A stretch of 64,000 nt of DNA, from contig JBBSCG010000003.1 in the NCBI GenBank assembly GCA_038250515.1, positions 23,675 through 87,674 on the forward strand, given 5' to 3'. A program made the translations under genes and the position numbers. The DNA comes from Candidatus Limnocylindria bacterium (GTDB lineage Bacteria > Chloroflexota > Limnocylindria > QHBO01). Shown here piece after piece: positions 53,248-64,000 of the stretch (position 1 is its first letter; every line of letters begins with the position of its first letter). Under the pieces are notes generated by a model. The model was not told where the DNA came from. It was given only the letters and a program-made list of their open reading frames with translations, and did not search any database.

Positions 53248-53931
53248 GTGATCAGTCGGTTGAAGGGACTCGGAATTGTCCTGGCAATTATCGGTATCGT
53301 CTTCGTGGCGGCCGGTGCGTTTGCTTACATGAAGACCCAGGAAGGGTATAAGTCGCTGAATGCCTTCAGCGCCGCACAGAACGTTCAGCTCAGCTACAAC
53401 AAGGACGGCCAGCTGGTCGACCGCGGCGAGACCAAAGATGCGCAGGCCATCATGGCCCTGCTGAAGGACGACTGGGGCTACCCGGTCGCTAGTTCGGAGC
53501 TCAACCCGAACAACCCCCTCGTCAACACGGCAAGCGAGTACATGTACCAGATGGCGACCGTCGCCTACCACACCCTGAACGGGACCCAGACCGTGGTCCT
53601 GCCCAAGGACGCGGAGTACAAGGGCAAGCTTTACAAGGCCGGCGAGTACCAGTTCCCGGTCGACGGGCGCTACTGGACCGGCTTCGATCGCGAGAATCCG
53701 ATCGAGGGCCCGGCGCGCGAGCAGGCGTGGACGGGCACCGCACATGCCCTGATCGCCGAACTTGGCGTAGGCACCGCCACCGCTTCGGCCCTCCAGCTCG
53801 GACTCGGACTGGCGGCCCTCTTCGCGGCCATCGGCGGCACGTTCCTGCTGACCGGCGCTGGCCTGGTGTGGGCGACCCGCACCGAGCCCGAACGGGTCCC
53901 GGTGCTGCGTCCAGCCACCATGCCGATCTGA
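53248..53931 (+). CDS. Hypothetical membrane protein (N- and C-terminal TM helices, extracytoplasmic middle)
   Basis: GAGAAGGA RBS then GTG. Aromatic-rich central region. No family recognised. Confidence 0.6.
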   Translation: MISRLKGLGIVLAIIGIVFVAAGAFAYMKTQEGYKSLNAFSAAQNVQLSYNKDGQLVDRGETKDAQAIMALLKDDWGYPVASSELNPNNPLVNTASEYMYQMATVAYHTLNGTQTVVLPKDAEYKGKLYKAGEYQFPVDGRYWTGFDRENPIEGPAREQAWTGTAHALIAELGVGTATASALQLGLGLAALFAAIGGTFLLTGAGLVWATRTEPERVPVLRPATMPI

Positions 53932-53977
53932 CCGGCCTATGAGGAAAGGCTTCTAAGAACCGGGCGACCTCTCGAGG

Positions 53978-54041
53978 AGCCTGGCCCGCACGGCGACCGA
54001 TCCACGAGGACGATCGCCGGCGGCCAGGCTCCTCGTCTGTT
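53978..54041 (+). other. Perfect 14-bp inverted repeat (CGAGGAGCCTGGCC / GGCCAGGCTCCTCG) enclosing a 35-nt partly self-complementary loop
   Basis: Seen directly. Lies 45 nt downstream of the preceding gene. Confidence 0.6.
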
Positions 54042-54289
54042 TCATCGCCACGGATTCCTTATCTGCTTGGCCTTGCGGGCTCGCCGAATCCCCAGTTCCG
54101 ACAGAGGGGGGAACGACACGGGGAGAGCCTCAGTGGCGCCCAGTAATCGCCCGGCGCAGCTGTCGGCCAGACAGGATCACCGGCACGCCGAGTGGCCGTT
54201 GTCGGAAGAGCGGCGCATCGGCCTTCTGAACGAACAAGATGGGCCTGATCGGGACCTCTGAGACGCCAGCCTCGTCCAAGAGCGATTCA

Positions 54290-54790
54290 AGTATCTCGGC
54301 CTCGGTGCAGCACCTGGTCGACCATTCTCGTGTTGCGGCCGCGAACGAAGACCTCGTTGGATTGGAGCTGCGTTGGGGGGCCAGACTGTCTGCTCGATGC
54401 CTGGCGGGGGGGGTCAGGCTCCGCGACGCCATCGGGCAGGTCGATGCTGCGGCTATTGACGTGCTGTTGCCGATATCGGCCCGCAGCCGGACGGACCACT
54501 ATTCCTGCCGCACTCGCGGCGGATAACCGCGCAACACGATCGCTTCGATAACGAGGAAGACGGTGTTCAGCGCGAAGCCGATGCTCACCAAGCACCTGGC
54601 GGCGCATGGGGACAATCGATGCCTCCTGCTGACCGATGGCATGGCCAACGTCGGCTGCACCGAGCCGGACCAGCTGGCCGCGTACGGCGCCGACCTGCGC
54701 GCGTCGGGTGTGACCACCACCACGTTCGGCATGGGCGAGCAGTTCGACGACGAGCCGCTGAGCCCGGTCGTGGCCGCCGCGGCCGTCCCC
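54290..54790 (+). pseudogene. Decayed remnant of a vWA-domain gene, paralog of 61724..62983
   Basis: ORF 54563..54847 reads NRCLLLTDGMANVGCTEPDQLAAYGADLRASGVTTTTFGMG, matching NRCLLLTDGLANIGLTEPVALAAFAKDLRASGVATSTFGVG in the intact gene. An upstream frame carries ARSRTDHY, like ARGSTDLHGG. Frames are broken. Confidence 0.55.
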
Positions 54791-54839
54791 GGTGAAGCAT
54801 CGGCGGTCGGCGGCCAGCTTCTGACGCTAGAGTTGTCGG

Positions 54840-55826
54840 GTGGTTGATAGGAGCCCCGCCCTCGACTGGCTTCTGGCATCCGATGAGCCAGCCAACCGCT
54901 ACCGGACCCAGACCTGGCTGCTCGACCAGCCCGAAACCGATCCGGCAGTCCGGCAGGAGCGCGCGCGCGTCGCCGATGGCCCGATCGTGTCGACCCTTCT
55001 CGACTTCCCGGAGCCGAAGCTCGACCCGTACCGCAAGTGGTTCGGGCTGCATTGGCGCCTCGTGTCACTGGCCGATTTCGGGTTACCGGCGGACGGGGCG
55101 GAGGTTCGCGCCAGGCTCGATGACGGGGTCGATCGCGAGCTGGCCTGGATCGCCGACCCGCGCCACCTCGAGGCCGTCAAACGGATTGATGGGCTCTACC
55201 GCGCGCATGCCGCGATGGAGGGCAACGCCCTCTACGCCGCCAGTCGATTCGGCCACGCCGATGACGAGCGCGCACGCCGCCTGGTCGACAAGCTCCTCGA
55301 ATGGCAGTGGCGCGACGGCGGCTGGAACTGCGATCGCCAATCATCGGGGTACCGGTCGTCATTTCACGAGAGCTGGGCGACAGCCATCGGCCTGGCGGCC
55401 TACCACGACGCCACCGGTGACGCCAATGCCCTGGCCGCCGCGCGCCGGACGGCCGAATTGCTGCTGGAGCATCGGCTGTTTCGTGGCCTGAGCGACCATC
55501 GTCCGATGCCCGGCAGCTTCGCGGCCCTCCACTGGCCCGCGTACTGGCATTACGACTTCCTGGGTGGCCTGCGCGTCGTCCGGGCGGCCGGCATGCTGTC
55601 GGATCCGCGCGCGACCGATGCGCTCGACCTCCTCGAGTCGCTCCAGCTGCCGAACGGCCGCTTCCAGGCCAAACGCGCGTGGTGGCAGGCCGGGCGCCAC
55701 GTGACATCGCCGGTCGACGTGGTTGACTGGGGCAAGGGCCGGCCCAGCGAGGTGCTGACGCTCCATGCCCTGTCGCTGCTCAAGGCGTCGGGACGCTGGA
55801 AGACAGGTCCCGCGGATGGTTCGTAA
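54840..55826 (+). CDS. Hypothetical protein with alpha/alpha-toroid (prenyltransferase/terpene-cyclase-like) repeat features
   Basis: LEWQWRDGGWNC and LQLPNGRF motifs resemble QW/prenyltransferase repeats. GTG start. Confidence 0.5.
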   Translation: MVDRSPALDWLLASDEPANRYRTQTWLLDQPETDPAVRQERARVADGPIVSTLLDFPEPKLDPYRKWFGLHWRLVSLADFGLPADGAEVRARLDDGVDRELAWIADPRHLEAVKRIDGLYRAHAAMEGNALYAASRFGHADDERARRLVDKLLEWQWRDGGWNCDRQSSGYRSSFHESWATAIGLAAYHDATGDANALAAARRTAELLLEHRLFRGLSDHRPMPGSFAALHWPAYWHYDFLGGLRVVRAAGMLSDPRATDALDLLESLQLPNGRFQAKRAWWQAGRHVTSPVDVVDWGKGRPSEVLTLHALSLLKASGRWKTGPADGS

Positions 55827-55890: not shown

Positions 55891-56085
55891 TCAATCCTCT
55901 TGCGGTGGGCCGCTCGGAATAGATCGGAGCGCCTCGTTCACGGCTTGGGAGGTTGGAAACCGCTTCGCGACGTCGGGGTCGAGGTGGACAACTGAGCCCC
56001 GCTCCGAGATCTGACGACTGTGCCGGCCGCGCGTGCCATACCGGAAGTCGTATTCCTCTCGCGGCTCGTCCTCAGGCTTCTTCAT
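55891..56085 (-). CDS. BrnA-like (DUF4415, RHH) antitoxin, apparently orphan
   Basis: EEYDFRYGTRG ... VHLDPDVAKRFPTSQAVNEALRSI matches the BrnA pattern. No BrnT-sized ORF upstream. Confidence 0.55.
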   Translation of the reverse strand: MKKPEDEPREEYDFRYGTRGRHSRQISERGSVVHLDPDVAKRFPTSQAVNEALRSIPSGPPQED

Positions 56086-56276
56086 AGTCGTGTCTCTCGA
56101 GCGAGGTCGCTCGCGTTGCAAAGATCAGTCGGATCTTACTCGCCACTCCAGAGCAGGCGGACAGTACGCATCGGGGCTTACTGAGCAATTACCGCGCGCT
56201 TACCGTCCGCTGCCACTCGCGACACGCAAGCTGTCACGCCCTCGCGCTACCGTATGGATGGGAGGGAGTGCCCTAC

Positions 56277-59200
56277 ATGCAATTGATCGACGGCAAGCCC
56301 GTCTTCTCGGCCACGGATCTTGTCGGCTACCTCGCCTGCGAGCATCTGACCGCACTCGAGACCGCGGCGCTCAGCGGCCTGGTCGAACGCCCGAATCGGC
56401 CCGATCCGGAGCTCGACGTCATCCGCCGCCGCGGTGAGCAGCACGAGCAGCGGTACCTCGGTGGGCTGCGTGCCGAGGGCAAGTCGGTGGTGACCATCGA
56501 GCGGTACGAGGACGAGCAGCGCGGCGCGCGGCTCATTCGCCAGGCGGACGAGACGATCGCCGCCATGCGCGAGGGCGCCGATGTCATCTACCAGGCCACC
56601 TTCTTCGACGGCCGATGGCTCGGCTATGCCGACTTCCTGCTGCGCGTGGACGATGCCGCCCGACCGTCGGCGTGGGGGCCGTACCACTACGAGGTCGCCG
56701 ACACGAAGCTGGCGCGGCACGTCAAGGCGGGCGCGGTGCTGCAGATCTGCTCGTACGTCGACCAGCTCGAACGACTCCAGGGGGTGCGGCCGGCGACGAT
56801 GAAGGTCGTCCTGGGCGGCAGCGCGCACGAGGTCGCCGAGCTGCGCACCGACGACTACATGGCCTACTACCACGCGGCGAAGCGGCGATTCGAGGCAACG
56901 GTGCTCGGCACCGATGATGCACCTGCGCCGCCGCCGGCATATCCGCCGGCGAGCACCTACCCGGAGCCGGTCGAACATTGCGCCGTCTGCCGCTGGGCGC
57001 CCGAATGCCAGGCGCGGCGGCGAGCCGACGACCACCTCTCGCTCGTCGCCGGCATCAGCGCCCGACAGCGCAAGGAGCTCGGCAAACGTGACATCGGCAC
57101 GCTGACCGAGCTTGGCACCACGCCGATCCCATTTGATCCGTCGCTCAAGGACGGCGAGGCGAGCATGGAACGTGTCCGAGAGCAGGCCCGCATCCAGCTC
57201 GAGGGCCGCGGCCGCACGCCGCCGCTCCACGAGCTGCTGCCGGTCGAGCCGGAGCGCGGCCTGGCGATCCTGCCCGAGCCCGATGCGGGCGACCTCTTCT
57301 TCGACATCGAGGGCGACCCATTCGCGTTCGACGATGGGATCGACTACCTGTTCGGGTTCCTCGACACGGCGGACGATTTCACCGCCTTCTGGTCGTTCGA
57401 TGCCAGCGGAGAGGTCTCGCTGGAGGGCGAGAAGCTCGCCTTCGAGCGGTTCATGGACTTCGTGATGGCCCGCCTCGCCGCGTACCCCAACATGCACATC
57501 TACCACTACGCGCCATACGAGCCGACGGCGCTGAAGCGGCTGATGGGCCGCCATGCGACGCGCGAAACGGAGGTCGACAGGCTGCTGCGCGGTGGCGTGC
57601 TGGTCGACCTCTTCCGCGCGGTGCGGCAGGGGGTTCGCGCATCGGTCGAGAGCTACTCGATCAAGAAGCTGGAGTCGATCTACGGCTTCCACCGCGAGAT
57701 CGACCTGCGCGACGCGGGATCGAGCATCGTGGCCTTCGAGGAGTGGCTCCAGTTGGGTGAGGGCGAGCGTCCATCGTCCGACATCCTGCAGCGGATCCAG
57801 ACCTACAATCGCGACGACGTGGTGAGCAACGCGCGCCTGCGCGACTGGCTGGAGCAGCTGCGCTTCGAAGTCGAAAGCGAGACCCGCACGCCGGTTCCGC
57901 GTCCGGCGGACCGCGTTGCCGAAGCGCCCGAGGAACTGACGGAGGCCGATGCGCAGGTCCAGCGCGTCGCCGACCGGCTGACCGACGGCGTCCCCGTCGA
58001 TCCGGCCGAGCGATCCGACGAGCAGCAGGCGCGATGGTTCCTCGCGCAGCTCCTGTCATGGCATCGGCGCGAAAACAAGGCGACGTGGTGGGACTTCTTC
58101 CACCGCATCGCCCTGACGTCGGAGGAGCTCGTCGATGAGGATGGCGCGTTGGGGCAGCTCGAGCTCGTGTCGGTGAGTCCACCGTACAAGCCGACACCCC
58201 GCAGCGGCCAGCGCCGGAAGGCGACGTATCGCTTCCCTCCCCAGGAGCATAAGAACGTCGAGTCGCGTTCCGATCTGTTCGATCCGGCGCTGGCGCAGGA
58301 GGCCCCGGCCGCCCCGAAATGGGACTGGCGTGTCAATGCCGACCTCGCCGAGCTGGACGACAAGACCGCCACGGTCACCCTGCTGTGGAAGGGCGAGGCG
58401 CCGATTCGCCACCCGGAAGCCCTCGTGGCCGTGAACCGGATCGATGACAAGGTGCTGCGTGCGGCGCTGCTGCGACTCGGTGAATGGGTGGCGGAGTACG
58501 GCATCGACGCCGACGGACCCTCCCGCGCTGCCCGCGACCTGCTCCTCAGGCGTGCGCCGCGCTGCGGGCATGCAGCGGAGGCGCCACTCAAGCAACCCAA
58601 TGAAACGGATCTCGATGCCGCTTGCCGGCTGATTGGGCAGCTGGACCGCGGCACGCTCGCCATCCAGGGGCCGCCCGGCTCGGGCAAGACCTACACCGGG
58701 GCGCGGATGGCGGTCGAGCTGCTGCGCGCCGGCAAGAAGGTCGGCATCAGCGCAACGAGCCACAAGGTGATCGGCAACTTCCTCGACATGCTGCTGAAGG
58801 CCGGCCGCGAGGCGGGCGTCGCGGTCAACGCGGTCCAGCGCGCGGACCCTGAGCAGGGCCTCGACCACGACGTGGAGCTCGCCAGCGACGGCGCCAGGGT
58901 CCGCAATGGCCTGGCCGATGGCACGTTCAATGTCGCCGCGGGCACGCCCTGGCTCTGGGCCCCTGAACAATGCTGCGACCTCGTCGACGTGCTGTTCGTC
59001 GACGTGGCCGGCCAGATCTCGCTTGCCAACGTCCTGGCCATGGGTGCCGCAACCGGCAGCATCGTCCTGCCGGGCGATCCCCAGCAACTCGACCAGCCGC
59101 TGCAGGGTACGCACCCGCTTGGGGCGGACAAGTCGGCCCTCGCCCACCTCCTCGGTTCGCACGACACCATGCCGGAGGCACTCGGCCTGTTCCTCGAGCG

Positions 59201-59801
59201 AACATGGCGGCTGCACCCACGCATCACGGAGTTCACCTCCGAGGCGTTCTACGAGGGGCGCCTCCTCTCGCGGGAAGGCCTGGAATCCCAGGAGCTGCGT
59301 GGGCCGGCACCGCTCGGGGGCGTCGGGCTGCGGCTCTCGCCATCGGTCCACAGCGGAGACGCGAACGAGTCCGACGAGGAAGCTCGACAGGTCGCCGAAC
59401 TCGTGCGGAACCTGGTCGAAGGACGGTCGACCTGGGTCAACCAGGACGGGGAGGAGCGCCCGGTGACCTGGACCGACGTCCTGGTCGTCGCTCCGTATAA
59501 CGCACAGGTCGGCGCGATTCGTCAGCTGCTGCCCGCCGAGGCGCGCGTCGGGACGGTCGACAAGTTCCAGGGCCAGGAGGCCCCGATCAGCATCTACTCC
59601 ATGACGACCAGCTCACCCGAGGACGCGCCGCGCGGCATGGACTTCCTCTACTCACGCAACCGCCTGAACGTCGCGACCTCCCGGGCGCGGTGCGTCGCGG
59701 TGGTCGTCGCGTCTCCAGAGCTGTTGCGGGTCCGCGCCCGAACGCCGGAGCAGATGCGCCTGGCAAACGCCCTCTGCCAGTTCGTGGAGTTAGCGACCTA
59801 G
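56277..59801 (+). CDS. RecB-like nuclease (TM0106 family) + RNase H-like domain + SF1 DNA2/AAA_11-AAA_12-type helicase fusion protein
   Basis: N-terminal Cys cluster CAVCRWAPEC and DxK-type nuclease region, FFDIEGDP RNase-H-like motif, Walker A GPPGSGKT, VLFVDVAGQ, VDKFQGQE, VATSRAR helicase motifs. GGGAGGGAG RBS 9 nt before the ATG 56277. Confidence 0.85.
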   Translation: MQLIDGKPVFSATDLVGYLACEHLTALETAALSGLVERPNRPDPELDVIRRRGEQHEQRYLGGLRAEGKSVVTIERYEDEQRGARLIRQADETIAAMREGADVIYQATFFDGRWLGYADFLLRVDDAARPSAWGPYHYEVADTKLARHVKAGAVLQICSYVDQLERLQGVRPATMKVVLGGSAHEVAELRTDDYMAYYHAAKRRFEATVLGTDDAPAPPPAYPPASTYPEPVEHCAVCRWAPECQARRRADDHLSLVAGISARQRKELGKRDIGTLTELGTTPIPFDPSLKDGEASMERVREQARIQLEGRGRTPPLHELLPVEPERGLAILPEPDAGDLFFDIEGDPFAFDDGIDYLFGFLDTADDFTAFWSFDASGEVSLEGEKLAFERFMDFVMARLAAYPNMHIYHYAPYEPTALKRLMGRHATRETEVDRLLRGGVLVDLFRAVRQGVRASVESYSIKKLESIYGFHREIDLRDAGSSIVAFEEWLQLGEGERPSSDILQRIQTYNRDDVVSNARLRDWLEQLRFEVESETRTPVPRPADRVAEAPEELTEADAQVQRVADRLTDGVPVDPAERSDEQQARWFLAQLLSWHRRENKATWWDFFHRIALTSEELVDEDGALGQLELVSVSPPYKPTPRSGQRRKATYRFPPQEHKNVESRSDLFDPALAQEAPAAPKWDWRVNADLAELDDKTATVTLLWKGEAPIRHPEALVAVNRIDDKVLRAALLRLGEWVAEYGIDADGPSRAARDLLLRRAPRCGHAAEAPLKQPNETDLDAACRLIGQLDRGTLAIQGPPGSGKTYTGARMAVELLRAGKKVGISATSHKVIGNFLDMLLKAGREAGVAVNAVQRADPEQGLDHDVELASDGARVRNGLADGTFNVAAGTPWLWAPEQCCDLVDVLFVDVAGQISLANVLAMGAATGSIVLPGDPQQLDQPLQGTHPLGADKSALAHLLGSHDTMPEALGLFLERTWRLHPRITEFTSEAFYEGRLLSREGLESQELRGPAPLGGVGLRLSPSVHSGDANESDEEARQVAELVRNLVEGRSTWVNQDGEERPVTWTDVLVVAPYNAQVGAIRQLLPAEARVGTVDKFQGQEAPISIYSMTTSSPEDAPRGMDFLYSRNRLNVATSRARCVAVVVASPELLRVRARTPEQMRLANALCQFVELAT

Positions 59802-59911: not shown

Positions 59912-60121
59912 TTAGACCGCCTCGACTATTCCGACACCAGTTGTCGGCGAAGGGACGGCCTCGCCAGTCGCCCGCATGGCTTCGATATGAAGCTGGATCG
60001 CCGCGCTGATGCGGCGCTCGACTCCCGCGCGGGTTCTCCCGGTGGCAACGCAGCCGGGCAGGTCCGGCACGTACGCAGCCCAGTTCCGATCGGTTTGTTC
60101 AAAGACGACTGCGTACTTCAT
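59912..60121 (-). CDS. hicB: HicB-family antitoxin
   Basis: 69 aa. YAVVFEQTDRNWAAYVPDLPGCVATGRT, typical HicB/UPF0150. Confidence 0.8.
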   Translation of the reverse strand: MKYAVVFEQTDRNWAAYVPDLPGCVATGRTRAGVERRISAAIQLHIEAMRATGEAVPSPTTGVGIVEAV

Positions 60122-60321
60122 GGGTCCTCATCTCGATCGGCGCCTGCTTGTCGGAGGATACTCCGATAGGTTCCTGGCGGCAGATCATCCGAAAGATCTC
60201 CTGCAACTGTCACGGTGCCTCGACGTACCGGATGCTGCAACTGGCGGTGACTGCCGGCGCGACGCACTTCACGCCATCCCGCCTCGCGAAGCCTACGGAG
60301 CACATCTCGGACCTTGGGCAC
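60118..60321 (-). CDS. hicA: HicA-family mRNA interferase toxin
   Basis: 67 aa. VLRRLREAGWREVRRAGSHRQLQHP, typical HicA (YcfA-like). Confidence 0.8.
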   Translation of the reverse strand: MPKVRDVLRRLREAGWREVRRAGSHRQLQHPVRRGTVTVAGDLSDDLPPGTYRSILRQAGADRDEDP

Positions 60322-60450: not shown

Positions 60451-61710
60451 ATGAACAGCAGCGTCACCATCACCGCGGACCGCATCGTCGTCGAGCATCT
60501 GGAGCTCCACGACCCGCAACTGGCCGCCTTCGTCGCCGAGCGCGACCCGGGTGAGCGGCCGGCGCTGGTGGAGCGCGCTCTGCGCATCGGCCTCATGACC
60601 ATCTGTAACGCCGGCGTCAGCCTGACGACCGACGTCGTGCGAACCGAGTTCACACGCCTCAGCGAGCGCCTGAAGGCGACGAACGCGCGCGCCGCGGAGG
60701 CGCTCGAGCAGCAGTTGCGTGCCAACTTCGCCGATGGCGACGGCCGACTGCCCCGGACCCTCGAGGCCTTCCTGGGCGACGAGGGCAAGCTGCGCCGGCT
60801 TGTGGGCGAGCTGTTCGATCCGAATCGGCGCGAGGGCGCCATGGGCCAGCTCACCACCCTGCTGCAGCGCTACTTCGACGGCGACGCCTCGCAGCTCGCC
60901 CGCCTGCTGGACCCGACCCGCGAGGGCTCGCCGCTGCACCAGTTCCGCAACGAGGTGACCGGCGAGTTCCGCTCCCTCCAGGAGCGGCTGACCGCGCTGG
61001 AGGCCGGCGAGAAGGCCCGGGCCGAGGAGCGCGCTCGCGGCACCGCCAAGGGCGTCGATTTCGAGGACGCGCTGGAGGCCCGCCTCGCCGAGCTGGCCCG
61101 CGCGCAGGGTGACCTGCTGGAGCGCACCGGCGCCGAAGCGGGAGACAGCCTTCGCAGCAAGAAGGGCGACTTCGTGCTGGGCATCGACCCCAGCCGCACG
61201 CGCGGCGTGGACCTGCGGGTGGCCATCGAGGCCAAGGACCGCACGGTGAGCCTGCGCCGATTCAGCACTGAGCTGGCGGAGGCGAAGGCGAACCGCCGCG
61301 CCGCCATCGCGCTCGCCGTCTTCACACCGCATAGCGCACCGCCCGGCGTGGCACCGCTGACCGTCATCGGTTCAGACGTCTACTGCGTGTATGACCCGGA
61401 GGCCGATGACGCCATCGCCCTGGAGGCCGCCGTCCGCCTCGCCCGCGCGCTGGCGCTGGCCAGCCTACGCGAGTCGACCGTCCAGCTCGACGTGCCGGCC
61501 GTGCAGGACGCGCTCGCCGAGATCGTGCGCCAGGTGGGCGAGGTGCAGGGCATGAAGTCGCGCCTCACCTCCATCTCGAATGCGGCCGGCGACGTGAGCC
61601 GAACCCTCGACATGATGCGGATGGGCATCCTGCGCAGCGTCAAGGACGTTGAGGCGCAGCTGGACGTCGTCGATTCCAAGACCGATACCGCTGGCGCGCT
61701 GAGCGCCTGA
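60451..61710 (+). CDS. Hypothetical coiled-coil protein with C-terminal PD-(D/E)xK-like motif
   Basis: 419 aa from the ATG for MNSSVTIT. Long helical/charged N-terminal region, then GDFVLGID-x11-VAIEAKD. No Walker motifs. Confidence 0.65.
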   Translation: MNSSVTITADRIVVEHLELHDPQLAAFVAERDPGERPALVERALRIGLMTICNAGVSLTTDVVRTEFTRLSERLKATNARAAEALEQQLRANFADGDGRLPRTLEAFLGDEGKLRRLVGELFDPNRREGAMGQLTTLLQRYFDGDASQLARLLDPTREGSPLHQFRNEVTGEFRSLQERLTALEAGEKARAEERARGTAKGVDFEDALEARLAELARAQGDLLERTGAEAGDSLRSKKGDFVLGIDPSRTRGVDLRVAIEAKDRTVSLRRFSTELAEAKANRRAAIALAVFTPHSAPPGVAPLTVIGSDVYCVYDPEADDAIALEAAVRLARALALASLRESTVQLDVPAVQDALAEIVRQVGEVQGMKSRLTSISNAAGDVSRTLDMMRMGILRSVKDVEAQLDVVDSKTDTAGALSA

Positions 61711-61723
61711 AAGAGAGCAACCC

Positions 61724-62983
61724 GTGACCGCATTCAGTGCCCGAACCGACCGCCACCTCGTCCGCACTGATGGACGCAGCCGGCGCCACGTCCTCCTCTG
61801 CCTCACCGCACCGAAGCCCCGCCGCAAGCCGGCGCAGCGCCCGCCGGTCAATGTCGCCTTCGTCCTGGACCGCAGCGGCTCGATGGGCGGGCAGAAGATC
61901 GCGCTGGCCAAGTACGCCGTCGAGCGTGCGCTCCAGGGGCTCGGCTCCAGGGACCGATTCAGCGTCGTGACCTACGACGACCAGGTGGAGAGCGTCGCGA
62001 GCAGCCGCACCGCCACCGCCAAGGCAAAGCAGGATGCGCTCCTTCGCCTCCAGACAGTCGACGCGCGCGGCAGCACCGACCTCCATGGCGGCTGGACCGC
62101 CGGCGCGGAGCAGGTCAAGTCGCACTTGGCCACCGACGGCGTGAACCGATGCCTGCTCCTGACCGATGGACTCGCCAACATCGGCCTCACCGAGCCGGTC
62201 GCCCTGGCCGCATTCGCGAAGGACCTGCGCGCCTCCGGCGTCGCGACCAGCACCTTCGGCGTCGGCGCCGACTTCGACGAGGTGCTCCTGACCGCCATCG
62301 CCGATGCCGGCGGCGGCCACTTCTACTTCATCGGTCGCCCGGAGCACATCGTGGACGCCATGACCAGCGAGCTCGGCGAGCTGCTCGAGACGGTCGCGCG
62401 CGAGGTCGTGGTCGACATCAAGCACCATCCGGCGCTCGAGCTCCAGGCGCTCTCCCCGGTCGTCGACGCGGCCGCCATCCCCGGCGAGCTGCGCCTGCTC
62501 ATCGGCGACCTCGTCGCCGGCCAGAACGTGGAGCTCGTGCTTTCAGTGCGCTTTCCGGCCGCCGATGCCGGAATCGCGACGAGCGCCTTCTTCACCACCG
62601 GCGACCGCGACGGCGTCCTCAAGGCCGATGGCTGCACCCTGGCCTGGCGGCATGCCGAAGGTGCGGATGTCGACGCCCAGCCGCGCGACCGCGAGGTCGA
62701 CCGTGCCGTGGCCCGCATCTACGCCGCACGCGCCCGCATGGAGGCGGTGCACCTCAATCGGCTGGGCGAGTATCGCGATGCCCGTCATGCGCTCAGGGGC
62801 GTCGCGCGGCGCATCGCCGGCTACGCGGGCTCGGACACCGAGCTCAAGGAGCTCGCGGCCCAGCTCATCGCCGAGGAAGCCGCCTTCTCAGCACCGATGG
62901 CCGAGCTCGACCGCAAATCGACCCACTTCACCTCCGCCAACATCCAGCGCTCGCGCGATCAGACGGGCCAGGCGCGGCGATAG
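61724..62983 (+). CDS. vWA-domain protein with intact MIDAS and C-terminal extension
   Basis: VAFVLDRSGSMGG MIDAS and LLLTDGLAN, then a C-terminal domain of about 200 aa. 13 nt downstream of the previous gene. GTG start. Confidence 0.75.
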   Translation: MTAFSARTDRHLVRTDGRSRRHVLLCLTAPKPRRKPAQRPPVNVAFVLDRSGSMGGQKIALAKYAVERALQGLGSRDRFSVVTYDDQVESVASSRTATAKAKQDALLRLQTVDARGSTDLHGGWTAGAEQVKSHLATDGVNRCLLLTDGLANIGLTEPVALAAFAKDLRASGVATSTFGVGADFDEVLLTAIADAGGGHFYFIGRPEHIVDAMTSELGELLETVAREVVVDIKHHPALELQALSPVVDAAAIPGELRLLIGDLVAGQNVELVLSVRFPAADAGIATSAFFTTGDRDGVLKADGCTLAWRHAEGADVDAQPRDREVDRAVARIYAARARMEAVHLNRLGEYRDARHALRGVARRIAGYAGSDTELKELAAQLIAEEAAFSAPMAELDRKSTHFTSANIQRSRDQTGQARR

Positions 62984-63079: not shown

Positions 63080-63328
63080 TTGGATCAGAGCGCGGCTGAG
63101 GCGAAGTTCAATACCGCCATGGTGGACATCTACGGGAGAACCGGCAAGGAGTTTGGGTATTGGCCGCACTCCTTCCAGTGGATGGTTCGGACGATGGGCA
63201 GCGTGGCCGCGGCCAAGAAGCCACTCGAAGATAGGCAAGTGTCCGATGGCTTCCTAAAGCTCGTCAAGGCGCGACGGATGGACCTGAGCGATGGCACCCC
63301 GCGTTCCGCCCTTGATACGCGACCATGA
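63080..63328 (+). CDS. Small hypothetical protein in a lower-GC segment
   Basis: 82 aa (MVDIYGRTGKEFGYWPHSFQWMVRTMG...). Weak. Confidence 0.25.
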   Translation: MDQSAAEAKFNTAMVDIYGRTGKEFGYWPHSFQWMVRTMGSVAAAKKPLEDRQVSDGFLKLVKARRMDLSDGTPRSALDTRP

Positions 63329-63769: not shown

Positions 63770-64000
63770 TCACACGAGTAGAACGCGGAGGCGATCAATG
63801 AAGTCCGACACATCGGCGGCCGGTAGGAGCCGCTCCTTACCACCAGCGCCGACTGCCTCGACTGCTTGGTGCGCCGATATCGCCGGAAAGTATCGCTGGA
63901 AGGCTTCGGGCGAGCTCCAAACGCGAAATGAACCGCCCTCAGCCGGTTGCGGCCACACCGTAAAGAGCATTACCTGCCTGTCGGAGTCCGGCGTGAACAT
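63770..64000 (-). CDS. Hypothetical protein, partial (runs off window end)
   Basis: Open frame to the window edge. Weak. Confidence 0.25.
   Translation of the reverse strand: MFTPDSDRQVMLFTVWPQPAEGGSFRVWSSPEAFQRYFPAISAHQAVEAVGAGGKERLLPAADVSDFIDRLRVLLV

Follow-up and report, generated by a model that had tools for sequence, protein, structure and literature searches.

Several groups of described proteins come closest to the two that concern us here. DUF2130 (PF09903, COG4487) is an uncharacterised family within the PD-(D/E)xK superfamily (Steczkiewicz et al., 2012; PMC3424549); ArnB has a domain layout that includes a beta-sandwich and a regulatory helical bundle (PMC12852372); and in the vWA-MoxR "ternary" conflict systems a restriction-endonuclease (REase) fold occurs among the effector domains to which the vWA component is fused (Kaur, Burroughs, Iyer, and Aravind, 2020; PMC7159879). 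In a 64,000-nucleotide stretch of DNA from a Candidatus Limnocylindria bacterium, hereafter called the window, an initial annotation had proposed that two neighbouring genes, one for a coiled-coil PD-(D/E)xK-like protein and the other for a vWA protein, constitute an uncharacterised two-gene module. We consider it highly probable that these are, instead, two independent accessory genes of that chromosome, which became adjacent by local rearrangement or deletion and form no conserved module.

The two open reading frames—hereafter gene 1 and gene 2—have the coordinates and lengths that the initial annotation gave them (Table 1), and are separated by exactly 13 nt (61711-61723) on one strand. The mechanical open reading frame of gene 1 opens at a TTG in position 60148; we placed the start at the ATG in position 60451 because the homologs, of 418 to 420 aa, align from there. 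The start codon of gene 2 is the GTG at 61724, in agreement with the N-termini of its homologs. A promoter and terminator scan between and around the genes gave nothing informative, and found no terminator-like site between them; since the gap is only 13 nt, the two are probably co-transcribed in this genome, which shared transcription is an accident of gene order.

Table 1. Features discussed in the text; positions are counted from the first nucleotide of the window.
Feature	Position	Strand	Description
vWA gene remnant	54593-54778	+	Only residues 134-195 left, inside ORF 54563-54847
TM0106-type RecB-like nuclease / RNase H-like / SF1 helicase fusion	56268-59801	+	1177 aa; TIGR03491 E 1.6e-75; PF13482; AAA_11/AAA_12
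hicB and hicA	59912-60121 and 60118-60321	-	Toxin-antitoxin pair, transcribed away from gene 1; Pfam HicB_lk_antitox 1.3e-8, HicA_toxin 3e-19
Gene 1	60451-61710	+	419 aa; begins with a beta-hairpin and long helices, has a central PD-(D/E)xK nuclease domain, and ends in a long helix
Nuclease core of gene 1	61048-61470	+	Residues ~200-340; alpha-beta-beta-beta-alpha-beta topology
Gene 2	61724-62983	+	419 aa; predicted cytoplasmic ArnB-like vWA protein: vWA domain splits beta-sandwich, then C-terminal helical bundle
vWA domain of gene 2	61847-62338	+	Residues ~42-205; Pfam VWA (PF00092) E 1.3e-17, residues 43-205
C-terminal half of gene 2	62390-62947	+	Beta-sandwich strands ~223-311, four-helix bundle ~313-408 (model secondary structure)

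The gene 1 protein is mostly helical in its AlphaFold model (pLDDT 79) and its sequence contains no Walker motif, both as first described; the motif GDFVLGID...VAIEAKD is likewise present, with a spacer of 10 residues and not the 11 originally counted. The PD-(D/E)xK-like fold that had been proposed from that motif is supported: the core has the topology of the superfamily, and the acidic/lysine signature E...D...(D/E)xK maps to helix 1, strand 2, and strand 3, with E205, D240, E260, and K262 as the catalytic candidates and the family motif GTxKGxxFE standing before helix 1. These four residues are invariant in an alignment of 19 close homologs, and among 46 diverse homologs D240 is again invariant, with E260 and K262 present in at least 90%, which conservation is far beyond that of a chance match. 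The product of gene 1 would be a stand-alone, probably metal-dependent, predicted PD-(D/E)xK DNA nuclease, in which the long helices surrounding the catalytic core most likely mediate oligomerisation. Its role could be in DNA-level conflict or defence, or in recombination or repair, as proposed for RmuC-like proteins.

The family to which gene 1 belongs is large (at least 3894 homologs, in 1855 clusters at 50% identity), and a search with gene 1 itself returned nothing significant in Pfam, NCBIfam, PADLOC, or PHROGs, no match in a PDB sequence search, and no relatives in a scan of viral contigs. Neither gene 1 nor ten distant members of the family matched PF09903 (E <= 0.1 for gene 1), and 6 of the 46 diverse homologs touched that model, with a best E of 1.2e-7. 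As judged from these profile comparisons, the family is a stand-alone one that Pfam does not cover, distantly related to DUF2130 and separate from it. A large family of nucleases for which Pfam has no model can now be placed in the PD-(D/E)xK superfamily, and its candidate catalytic residues are identified.

As to gene 2, the initial annotation had recognised a vWA domain with an intact MIDAS, a reading that the Pfam match (Table 1) and the residues D49-x-S51-x-S53, T118, and D148, invariant in 28 homologs, bear out. The remaining C-terminal ~200 aa, which had been left as of unknown nature, were resolved by structural matches of a predicted model (pLDDT 92.4, pTM 0.89). Foldseek aligned that model with ArnB (8s05_A) at an E of 5e-24 over 421 columns and TM of 0.68/0.74, and with PDB 4fx5—the bacterial structural ortholog, from Catenulispora acidiphila—at TM of 0.71/0.69; 5a8j was also matched, and Sec23/24 at a TM of ~0.58. 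The model displays the features of the ArnB-like architecture, namely a beta-sandwich that the vWA domain interrupts and a helical bundle at the C-terminus, and on the strength of the model the C-terminal half of gene 2 is the equivalent of the beta-sandwich and regulatory helical bundle of ArnB. A beta-sandwich and helical bundle of the ArnB/Sec23-24 type is thereby recognised in what had been the "unknown" half of a vWA protein common in bacteria. The N-terminus lacks a hydrophobic segment, which sequence feature points to a cytoplasmic protein; by analogy with ArnB, the product would most likely serve, in dependence on its MIDAS, as a scaffold for protein binding or as a regulatory adaptor.

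Comparison of the neighbourhoods of both genes across genomes did not support the two-gene module that was the main proposal. Among 80 gene 1 loci from distinct species (53-92% identity, flanks of up to 6 kb), none had a vWA gene adjoining gene 1, and only two had any vWA sequence nearby: in L045 a truncated and frameshifted vWA remnant lies 1.8 kb from the gene 1 homolog, and in L058 a MerR-vWA pair occupies the opposite strand at a distance of 5 kb. Nor was a gene 1 homolog found near the vWA gene in any of 80 metagenome vWA loci, many of which are short, so that this reverse test is weakened. The closest relatives of gene 1 with available context (L170 at 88% identity; L062, L066, and L076 at 90-92%) are unpaired, and the closest such relative of the vWA gene (L169, 84%) is not paired with gene 1. 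The pair is thus not co-conserved elsewhere, which outcome the initial annotation had itself named as speaking against its proposal. Furthermore, the two genes have discordant histories: gene 1 is 84% identical and the vWA gene 72% identical to their counterparts in contig_2995, whereas the corresponding values against L167 are 62% and 72%.

The usual neighbours of each gene point in the same direction. Around gene 1 the most frequent neighbour cluster occurs in at most 16 of the 80 loci, so that the family has no conserved partner, the immediate neighbours being a mixture of HD/GGDEF, GNAT, Cpn60, SLFN-like helicase, subtilase, PIN, and Ku genes. The family occupies variable, assembly-breaking regions, at times beside toxin-antitoxin genes, NERD/UvrD or SLFN-like helicases, WYL regulators, or Cas6. 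The vWA gene, for its part, is preceded directly and on the same strand by a MerR_1 gene in 14 of 20 loci at 40-60% identity, in which more distant relatives the homolog of gene 2 is usually the second member of a MerR-regulator plus vWA pair. This partner is absent from all five loci of the window's own vWA clade, which clade would have lost it, and tblastn detected no homolog of it in the window. The possibility that the beta-hairpin at the N-terminus of gene 1 (VTIT...DRIVVEHLELHD) mimics the conserved C-terminal motif WERIxLxxDVELHVRRPL of the MerR partners was also weighed, and set aside because all of the gene 1 family, which has no vWA linkage, conserves that hairpin.

In three other genomes both genes do recur on the same strand and in the same order, at 1.8 kb from each other in L045, at 4.5 kb in L167, and at ~13 kb in contig_2995 if that contig is circular; such same-order co-occurrence exceeds what random placement would give, and could be left over from an earlier linkage. 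This retained order and orientation, within 2-5 kb in the first two loci and possibly over the longer distance in the third, would suit a genuine sensor/adaptor plus effector pair—either recently assembled, or ancestral and by now mostly eroded, in effect a nascent defence operon—in which the ArnB-like vWA protein, binding a target or regulator via its MIDAS, would control the coiled-coil nuclease. The operon-like spacing without a terminator-like site, the toxin-antitoxin genes and RecB-nuclease/helicase nearby, and the precedent of the vWA-MoxR conflict systems, where vWA proteins are coupled with effectors that have an REase fold (PMC7159879), are in keeping with such a pair, which we nonetheless regard as decidedly unlikely in view of the adjacency found in neither direction, the unpaired closest relatives, the discordant identities, a nuclease family devoid of any conserved partner, and a vWA family whose conserved partner is a MerR protein and not a nuclease. 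Nor does either protein match a defence-system model of PADLOC-DB 2.0, gene 2 giving no match at all and gene 1 a sole weak one (PbeC, E 0.04), so that the earlier statement that neither can be assigned to a named system stands, and neither belongs to a known anti-phage system in that collection.

A further explanation would be that each gene is part of a larger multi-gene system with components outside the examined range, such as a vWA partner beyond position 64000, or a system uniting the RecB-nuclease/helicase with gene 1. Only 1017 nt of the window follow gene 2, and a downstream partner may lie beyond them; in L003 the vWA homolog is followed at 2.7 kb by a homolog of the RecB-like nuclease/helicase (64% identical), and NERD/UvrD-type helicases are found near the 88% identical gene 1 homolog of L170. 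The placement of the helicase homolog downstream of the vWA gene in L003 indicates that the synteny of the region is loose and rearranged. Against a larger system, the four clade relatives with usable downstream sequence (L003, L167, L168, and L169) have no Pfam family in common among the genes flanking the vWA gene, and tblastx of the clade's vWA flanks yielded no common neighbour, with only weak, noisy fragments of bit scores up to 46 among the matches listed; neighbour clusters of the helicase type accompany gene 1 in 16 of the 80 loci at most; and in the window hicAB, on the opposite strand, sits between the helicase gene and gene 1. We judge a larger system of this kind highly improbable, and retain two independent accessory genes, brought together in a variable region by what would have been a local rearrangement or deletion, as the explanation of the locus.

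The surroundings of the genes had been described as resembling a defence island, which description we could not sustain: the region is a stretch of Limnocylindria (Chloroflexota) chromosome, where toxin-antitoxin pairs are scattered among transporter, dehydrogenase, and signalling genes with no dense island. The hicAB pair directly upstream of gene 1 was rightly identified, both genes having Pfam support, as was the RecB-nuclease/SF1-helicase fusion, which ends 650 nt before gene 1; both are context only, and hicAB lies outside any system with genes 1 and 2. An "orphan brnA" reported at 55891-56121, by contrast with these, had no Pfam match and was not confirmed, and no Pfam match was found for an 82-aa open reading frame near gene 2. 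The decayed vWA paralog placed at 54290-54790 proved real in part: the segment listed in Table 1 is 61% identical to gene 2 at the amino-acid level (tblastn, E 4e-22) and 74% identical over 148 nt (blastn), whereas 54290-54590 gave no significant similarity and the interval 53801-55100 no other significant vWA piece by either search. This remnant documents the decay of vWA genes in this lineage; it had also been taken as proof that the module was duplicated or mobilised and then lost, which it does not show because no trace of gene 1 is present in that region.

The proposed two-gene defence module, then, does not hold and is unsuited to be taken forward as a system, and a better candidate for follow-up than the window's pair is the recurrent MerR plus ArnB-like vWA pair of related bacteria. 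On a broader and more speculative plane, it is conceivable, if unlikely, that the gene 1 family is an unrecognised single-gene, Shedu-like defence against mobile DNA, and that, separately, the MerR plus ArnB-like vWA pair does in bacteria what the ArnA-ArnB switch does in archaea, with DNA binding as its direct output. The variable locations of the gene 1 family and its occasional toxin-antitoxin, helicase, WYL, and Cas6 neighbours fit a single-gene defence; on that reading, gene 1 may in this genome have captured an orphan ArnB-like vWA protein as a new regulatory partner.

When set against the described systems, gene 1 resembles DUF2130 in having helical or coiled-coil regions together with a PD-(D/E)xK core, both being stand-alone bacterial proteins of uncharacterised function, and differs from it in that neither the window protein nor most of its family match PF09903, the two being distant relatives. 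To RmuC (PF02646), Shedu (DUF4263), and the PADLOC models there was no sequence-level match from gene 1; its Pfam search gave neither of the first two, and neither is among the 12 families that the 46 homologs match at E <= 0.01. Unlike the PD-(D/E)xK nucleases Can2/Card1, McrC, Bax1, NucS, and Cap4, gene 1 has no CARF/SAVED sensor, McrB-like partner, or helicase partner. With the vWA-MoxR ternary systems gene 2 shares the character of a predicted cytoplasmic vWA protein in a Chloroflexota genome; the nuclease here, however, is a separate gene from a family with no vWA linkage elsewhere, and the 7 kb upstream and the 1 kb downstream of gene 2 contain no MoxR AAA+, VMAP, or iSTAND gene. Membership in the vWA-MoxR, ArnAB, and Shedu systems was weighed in each instance and set aside. 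In the case of ArnA-ArnB, no ArnA-type ZnF-FHA partner, kinase, or phosphatase gene adjoins gene 2, whose neighbours are gene 1 (with no FHA or ZnF match), hicAB, and the 82-aa frame; the host, moreover, is a bacterium without an archaellum, and related bacterial loci have as partner a MerR-type HTH protein, whose gene is not found directly upstream of gene 2 in the window. Although sequence identity to ArnB is only ~17-20%, the full-length architecture of gene 2 is that of ArnB/ArnE of Sulfolobus acidocaldarius (PDB 8s05, 5a8j), of 4fx5, and of the Sec23/24 core (PMC12852372), and in ArnB and the gene 2 model alike an N-terminal pair of strands joins later strands to form the beta-sandwich that the vWA domain splits.

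The initial annotation had proposed that two ORFs on one strand, 13 nt apart and each encoding 419 aa, make up a two-gene module, and the ORFs themselves are present as it described them: gene 1, for a nuclease-fold protein, and gene 2, for a vWA protein. The mechanical ORF of gene 1 reaches upstream to a TTG at 60148, which extension overlaps hicA on the opposite strand; since the homologs measure 418–420 aa and the alignment begins at the ATG at 60451, we assigned the start to that ATG. A terminator scan revealed no plus-strand terminator-like site within the gap or close to it, its only match being on the minus strand, and the G+C content around the two genes (ca. 68–69%) is similar to that of the remaining window. 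Given their short spacing, the two genes would probably be co-transcribed in the window genome.

Coordinates of the features considered (L-numbers designate homolog loci from other genomes; all other positions are those of the window)
Feature	Position	Strand	Remarks
Gene 1	60451-61710	+	419 aa; ATG start
Gene 2	61724-62983	+	419 aa; GTG start
vWA remnant, window	54593-54778		186 nt; gene 2 residues 134-195
vWA remnant, L045	L045:8997-9826
MerR_1 partner genes	L085:5099-5812, L088:183-722, L091:971-1798, L092:3605-4393, L101:724-1287, and about 18 more loci		immediately upstream of each locus's vWA gene

From the side of gene 1, we surveyed 80 homolog loci, one per species, at 53–92% identity and including flanks of at most 6 kb, and in none did a vWA gene adjoin gene 1. 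A vWA sequence of any kind occurred at two of these loci: in L045, where a remnant with a truncated N-terminus and a frameshift follows the gene 1 homolog at a distance of 1.8 kb downstream, and in L058, where a MerR-vWA pair on the opposite strand lies some 5 kb upstream. The pairing is absent at the gene 1 homologs of 90–92% (L062, L066, L076) and 88% identity (L170). Likewise, no gene 1 homolog was found at any of 80 metagenome vWA loci, many of them short, or in the 5.2 kb of sequence upstream of an 84% vWA homolog (L169). Co-conservation, on which the initial annotation had itself staked the module, is thus missing from both surveys, and the module is not supported. In favor of a true functional pair, whether recent or eroded, the main argument is the identical order and orientation of the two genes in L045, L167, and possibly contig_2995, a 2.24-Mb contig of a relative. 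In L167 a 4.5-kb stretch with eight opposite-strand genes separates the homologs, and in contig_2995 they lie at opposite contig ends, where only circularity of the contig would bring their distance down to about 13 kb. The identities of gene 1 and the vWA gene, moreover, are discordant (84%/72% against contig_2995, 62%/72% against L167), and the two genes have different histories. We regard a functional pair as improbable, and consider it likely that gene 1 and gene 2 are independent genes whose adjacency is accidental.

The gene 1 protein of the window had no significant match in Pfam, NCBIfam, PADLOC, PHROGs, or the PDB sequences, and by sequence it belongs to neither RmuC nor Shedu nor any PADLOC family. 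Its family is nonetheless large: the 90% collection contains over 3894 relatives, and clustering at 50% identity gives 1855 clusters. Among 46 diverse members (23–84% identity), K200, G201, D221, G239, D240, E260, K262, and R282 are invariant or at least 90% conserved, and E205 is invariant among the closer members; the consensus, GTxKGxxFE ... GD ... ExK ... NR, reads as the classical E...D...(D/E)xK arrangement. In the AlphaFold model (mean pLDDT 79), the conserved residues fall within a core of alpha-beta-beta-beta-alpha-beta topology, with block-mean pLDDT values of about 81–96 for its strands and helices; a small N-terminal beta-hairpin precedes this core and long helices (33–93, 161–197, 348–413) flank it. 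Six of the 46 homologs touched PF09903 (DUF2130; best E 1.2e-7), a family listed among the PD-(D/E)xK families with function unknown (PMC3424549), and one touched Mrr_cat. The conserved residues, the modeled core, and these matches together bear out the earlier guess of a nuclease fold: the family, outside Pfam coverage, is distantly related to DUF2130, and gene 1 is a new, unmodelled PD-(D/E)xK superfamily member near DUF2130. The protein would be a metal-dependent DNA nuclease, which would oligomerise via its long helices.

Gene 1 is without a conserved partner: the commonest neighbor cluster occurs at 16 of the 80 loci, and the immediate neighbors (121 genes, 66 loci) form a mixed set that includes HD/GGDEF, GNAT, Cpn60, SLFN-like helicase (PDC-S41), subtilase, PIN, luciferase-like oxidoreductase, Ku, and NADH dehydrogenase subunits. 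Some contexts look defence-like, among them that of L170 with NERD/UvrD and MazE and those of 28%-identical homologs in two assemblies (L165:1260-4950, L166:879-4569), which are immediately followed by genes for a Cas6-like protein and a WYL-domain regulator; many other contexts do not. On large contigs (>50 kb), 10 of 48 homologs (L006, L018, L023, L054, L059, L064, L066, L076, L081, L082) are located within 5 kb of a contig end, versus 2.0 expected (P ~5e-5), which roughly 5-fold enrichment suggests that gene 1 resides in strain-variable or repeat-bordered, assembly-breaking regions.

One MAG (MFD05442.bin.1.16) contains two gene 1 copies (L066:3255-4509 and L076:6001-7240), both 91–92% identical to the window protein and each near a contig end. 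In L059, L062, L066, L076, and L081 the best alignment spans only the first 220–240 residues, reflecting either frameshifted genes or long-read indel errors that split them. Three homologs (L004, L017, L034; 62–82% identical to the window's Chloroflexota protein) are on contigs binned as Steroidobacteraceae (Gammaproteobacteria), probably through mis-binning, horizontal transfer being possible.

Gene 2 contains a Pfam VWA domain (residues 43–205, E 1.3e-17), and in 28 homologs its metal site, the MIDAS (D49, S51, S53, T118, D148), is invariant and the C-terminal half is well conserved too. The confident structure model (pLDDT 92.4, pTM 0.89) matched at full length ArnB (8s05_A; E 5e-24, TM 0.68/0.74), a Catenulispora vWA protein (4fx5; TM 0.71), and ArnE/VWA2 (5a8j), and more weakly Sec23/Sec24 (TM ~0.58). 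Those full-length matches resolve the C-terminal extension of some 200 aa, which the initial annotation could not place, into two known elements, the second part of a beta-sandwich and a four-helix bundle; since in the model N-terminal strands 3–28 complete the sandwich, the vWA domain is inserted in it. The N-terminus, as read from the sequence, lacks a hydrophobic segment, and the protein is thus cytoplasmic.

Regarding the surroundings, Pfam confirmed the hicAB genes already annotated and a MazE/PIN pair; two Phd/YefM and two PIN genes occur amid P-type ATPases, MFS transporters, GAF/GGDEF signaling genes, and dehydrogenases. The window is thus part of a chromosome in which toxin-antitoxin pairs are scattered, and not a dense defence island. 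For the supposed orphan brnA (55891-56121, minus strand) Pfam gave no match at E <= 0.01, yet its C-terminus ('VVHLDPDVAKRF...VNEALRSI') is antitoxin-like in look. Nor did Pfam match the 328-aa protein that directly follows the vWA remnant (54840-55826) or the 82-aa ORF behind gene 2 (63080-63328), whose third-position G+C (0.76) is below that of its neighbors. Of the decayed vWA paralog placed at 54290-54790, a fragment is indeed present; it does not show a duplication of the module, no gene 1 remnant having been found beside it. This fragment and the L045 remnant show that vWA genes decay often in the window's lineage. The two independent remnants start at nearly the same protein point (residue 134 in the window, 141 in L045, just before 'NRCLLLTDG') and both lack the N-terminal MIDAS half; breaks or recombination may recur at this point.

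For the vWA family, by contrast, a partner is conserved: a MerR_1 HTH protein of 180–250 aa, encoded just upstream on the same strand, which accompanies 14 of 20 vWA loci at 40–60% identity and 8 of 40 below 40%. This protein contains a low-complexity linker, and its C-terminus bears a conserved motif (consensus rsqWeRi.L.pdvELHvRrPl). It was not found in the window and is missing at every one of the five loci of the window's vWA clade. That partners of gene 1 and gene 2 lie outside the window we hold to be even less probable than a functional pair. What remains of value is the annotation of a large nuclease family not covered by Pfam and the MerR plus ArnB-like vWA pair of related bacteria.

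The architecture of gene 2 is exactly that of ArnB, a beta-sandwich split by the vWA domain plus a helical bundle, for which bacterial structural orthologs have also been named (PMC12852372), and we regard gene 2 as a bacterial member of that architecture. By analogy with ArnB it would be a MIDAS-dependent protein-binding adaptor, and in its usual setting the vWA protein would probably modulate a MerR-type regulator. At the window locus, gene 2 is accompanied by neither ArnA nor a kinase/phosphatase, MoxR, or MerR. The paper on the vWA-MoxR ternary conflict systems (PMC7159879) does not use the word MerR. The MerR_1 plus ArnB-like vWA pair may be a bacterial analogue of ArnA-ArnB with a DNA-binding output.
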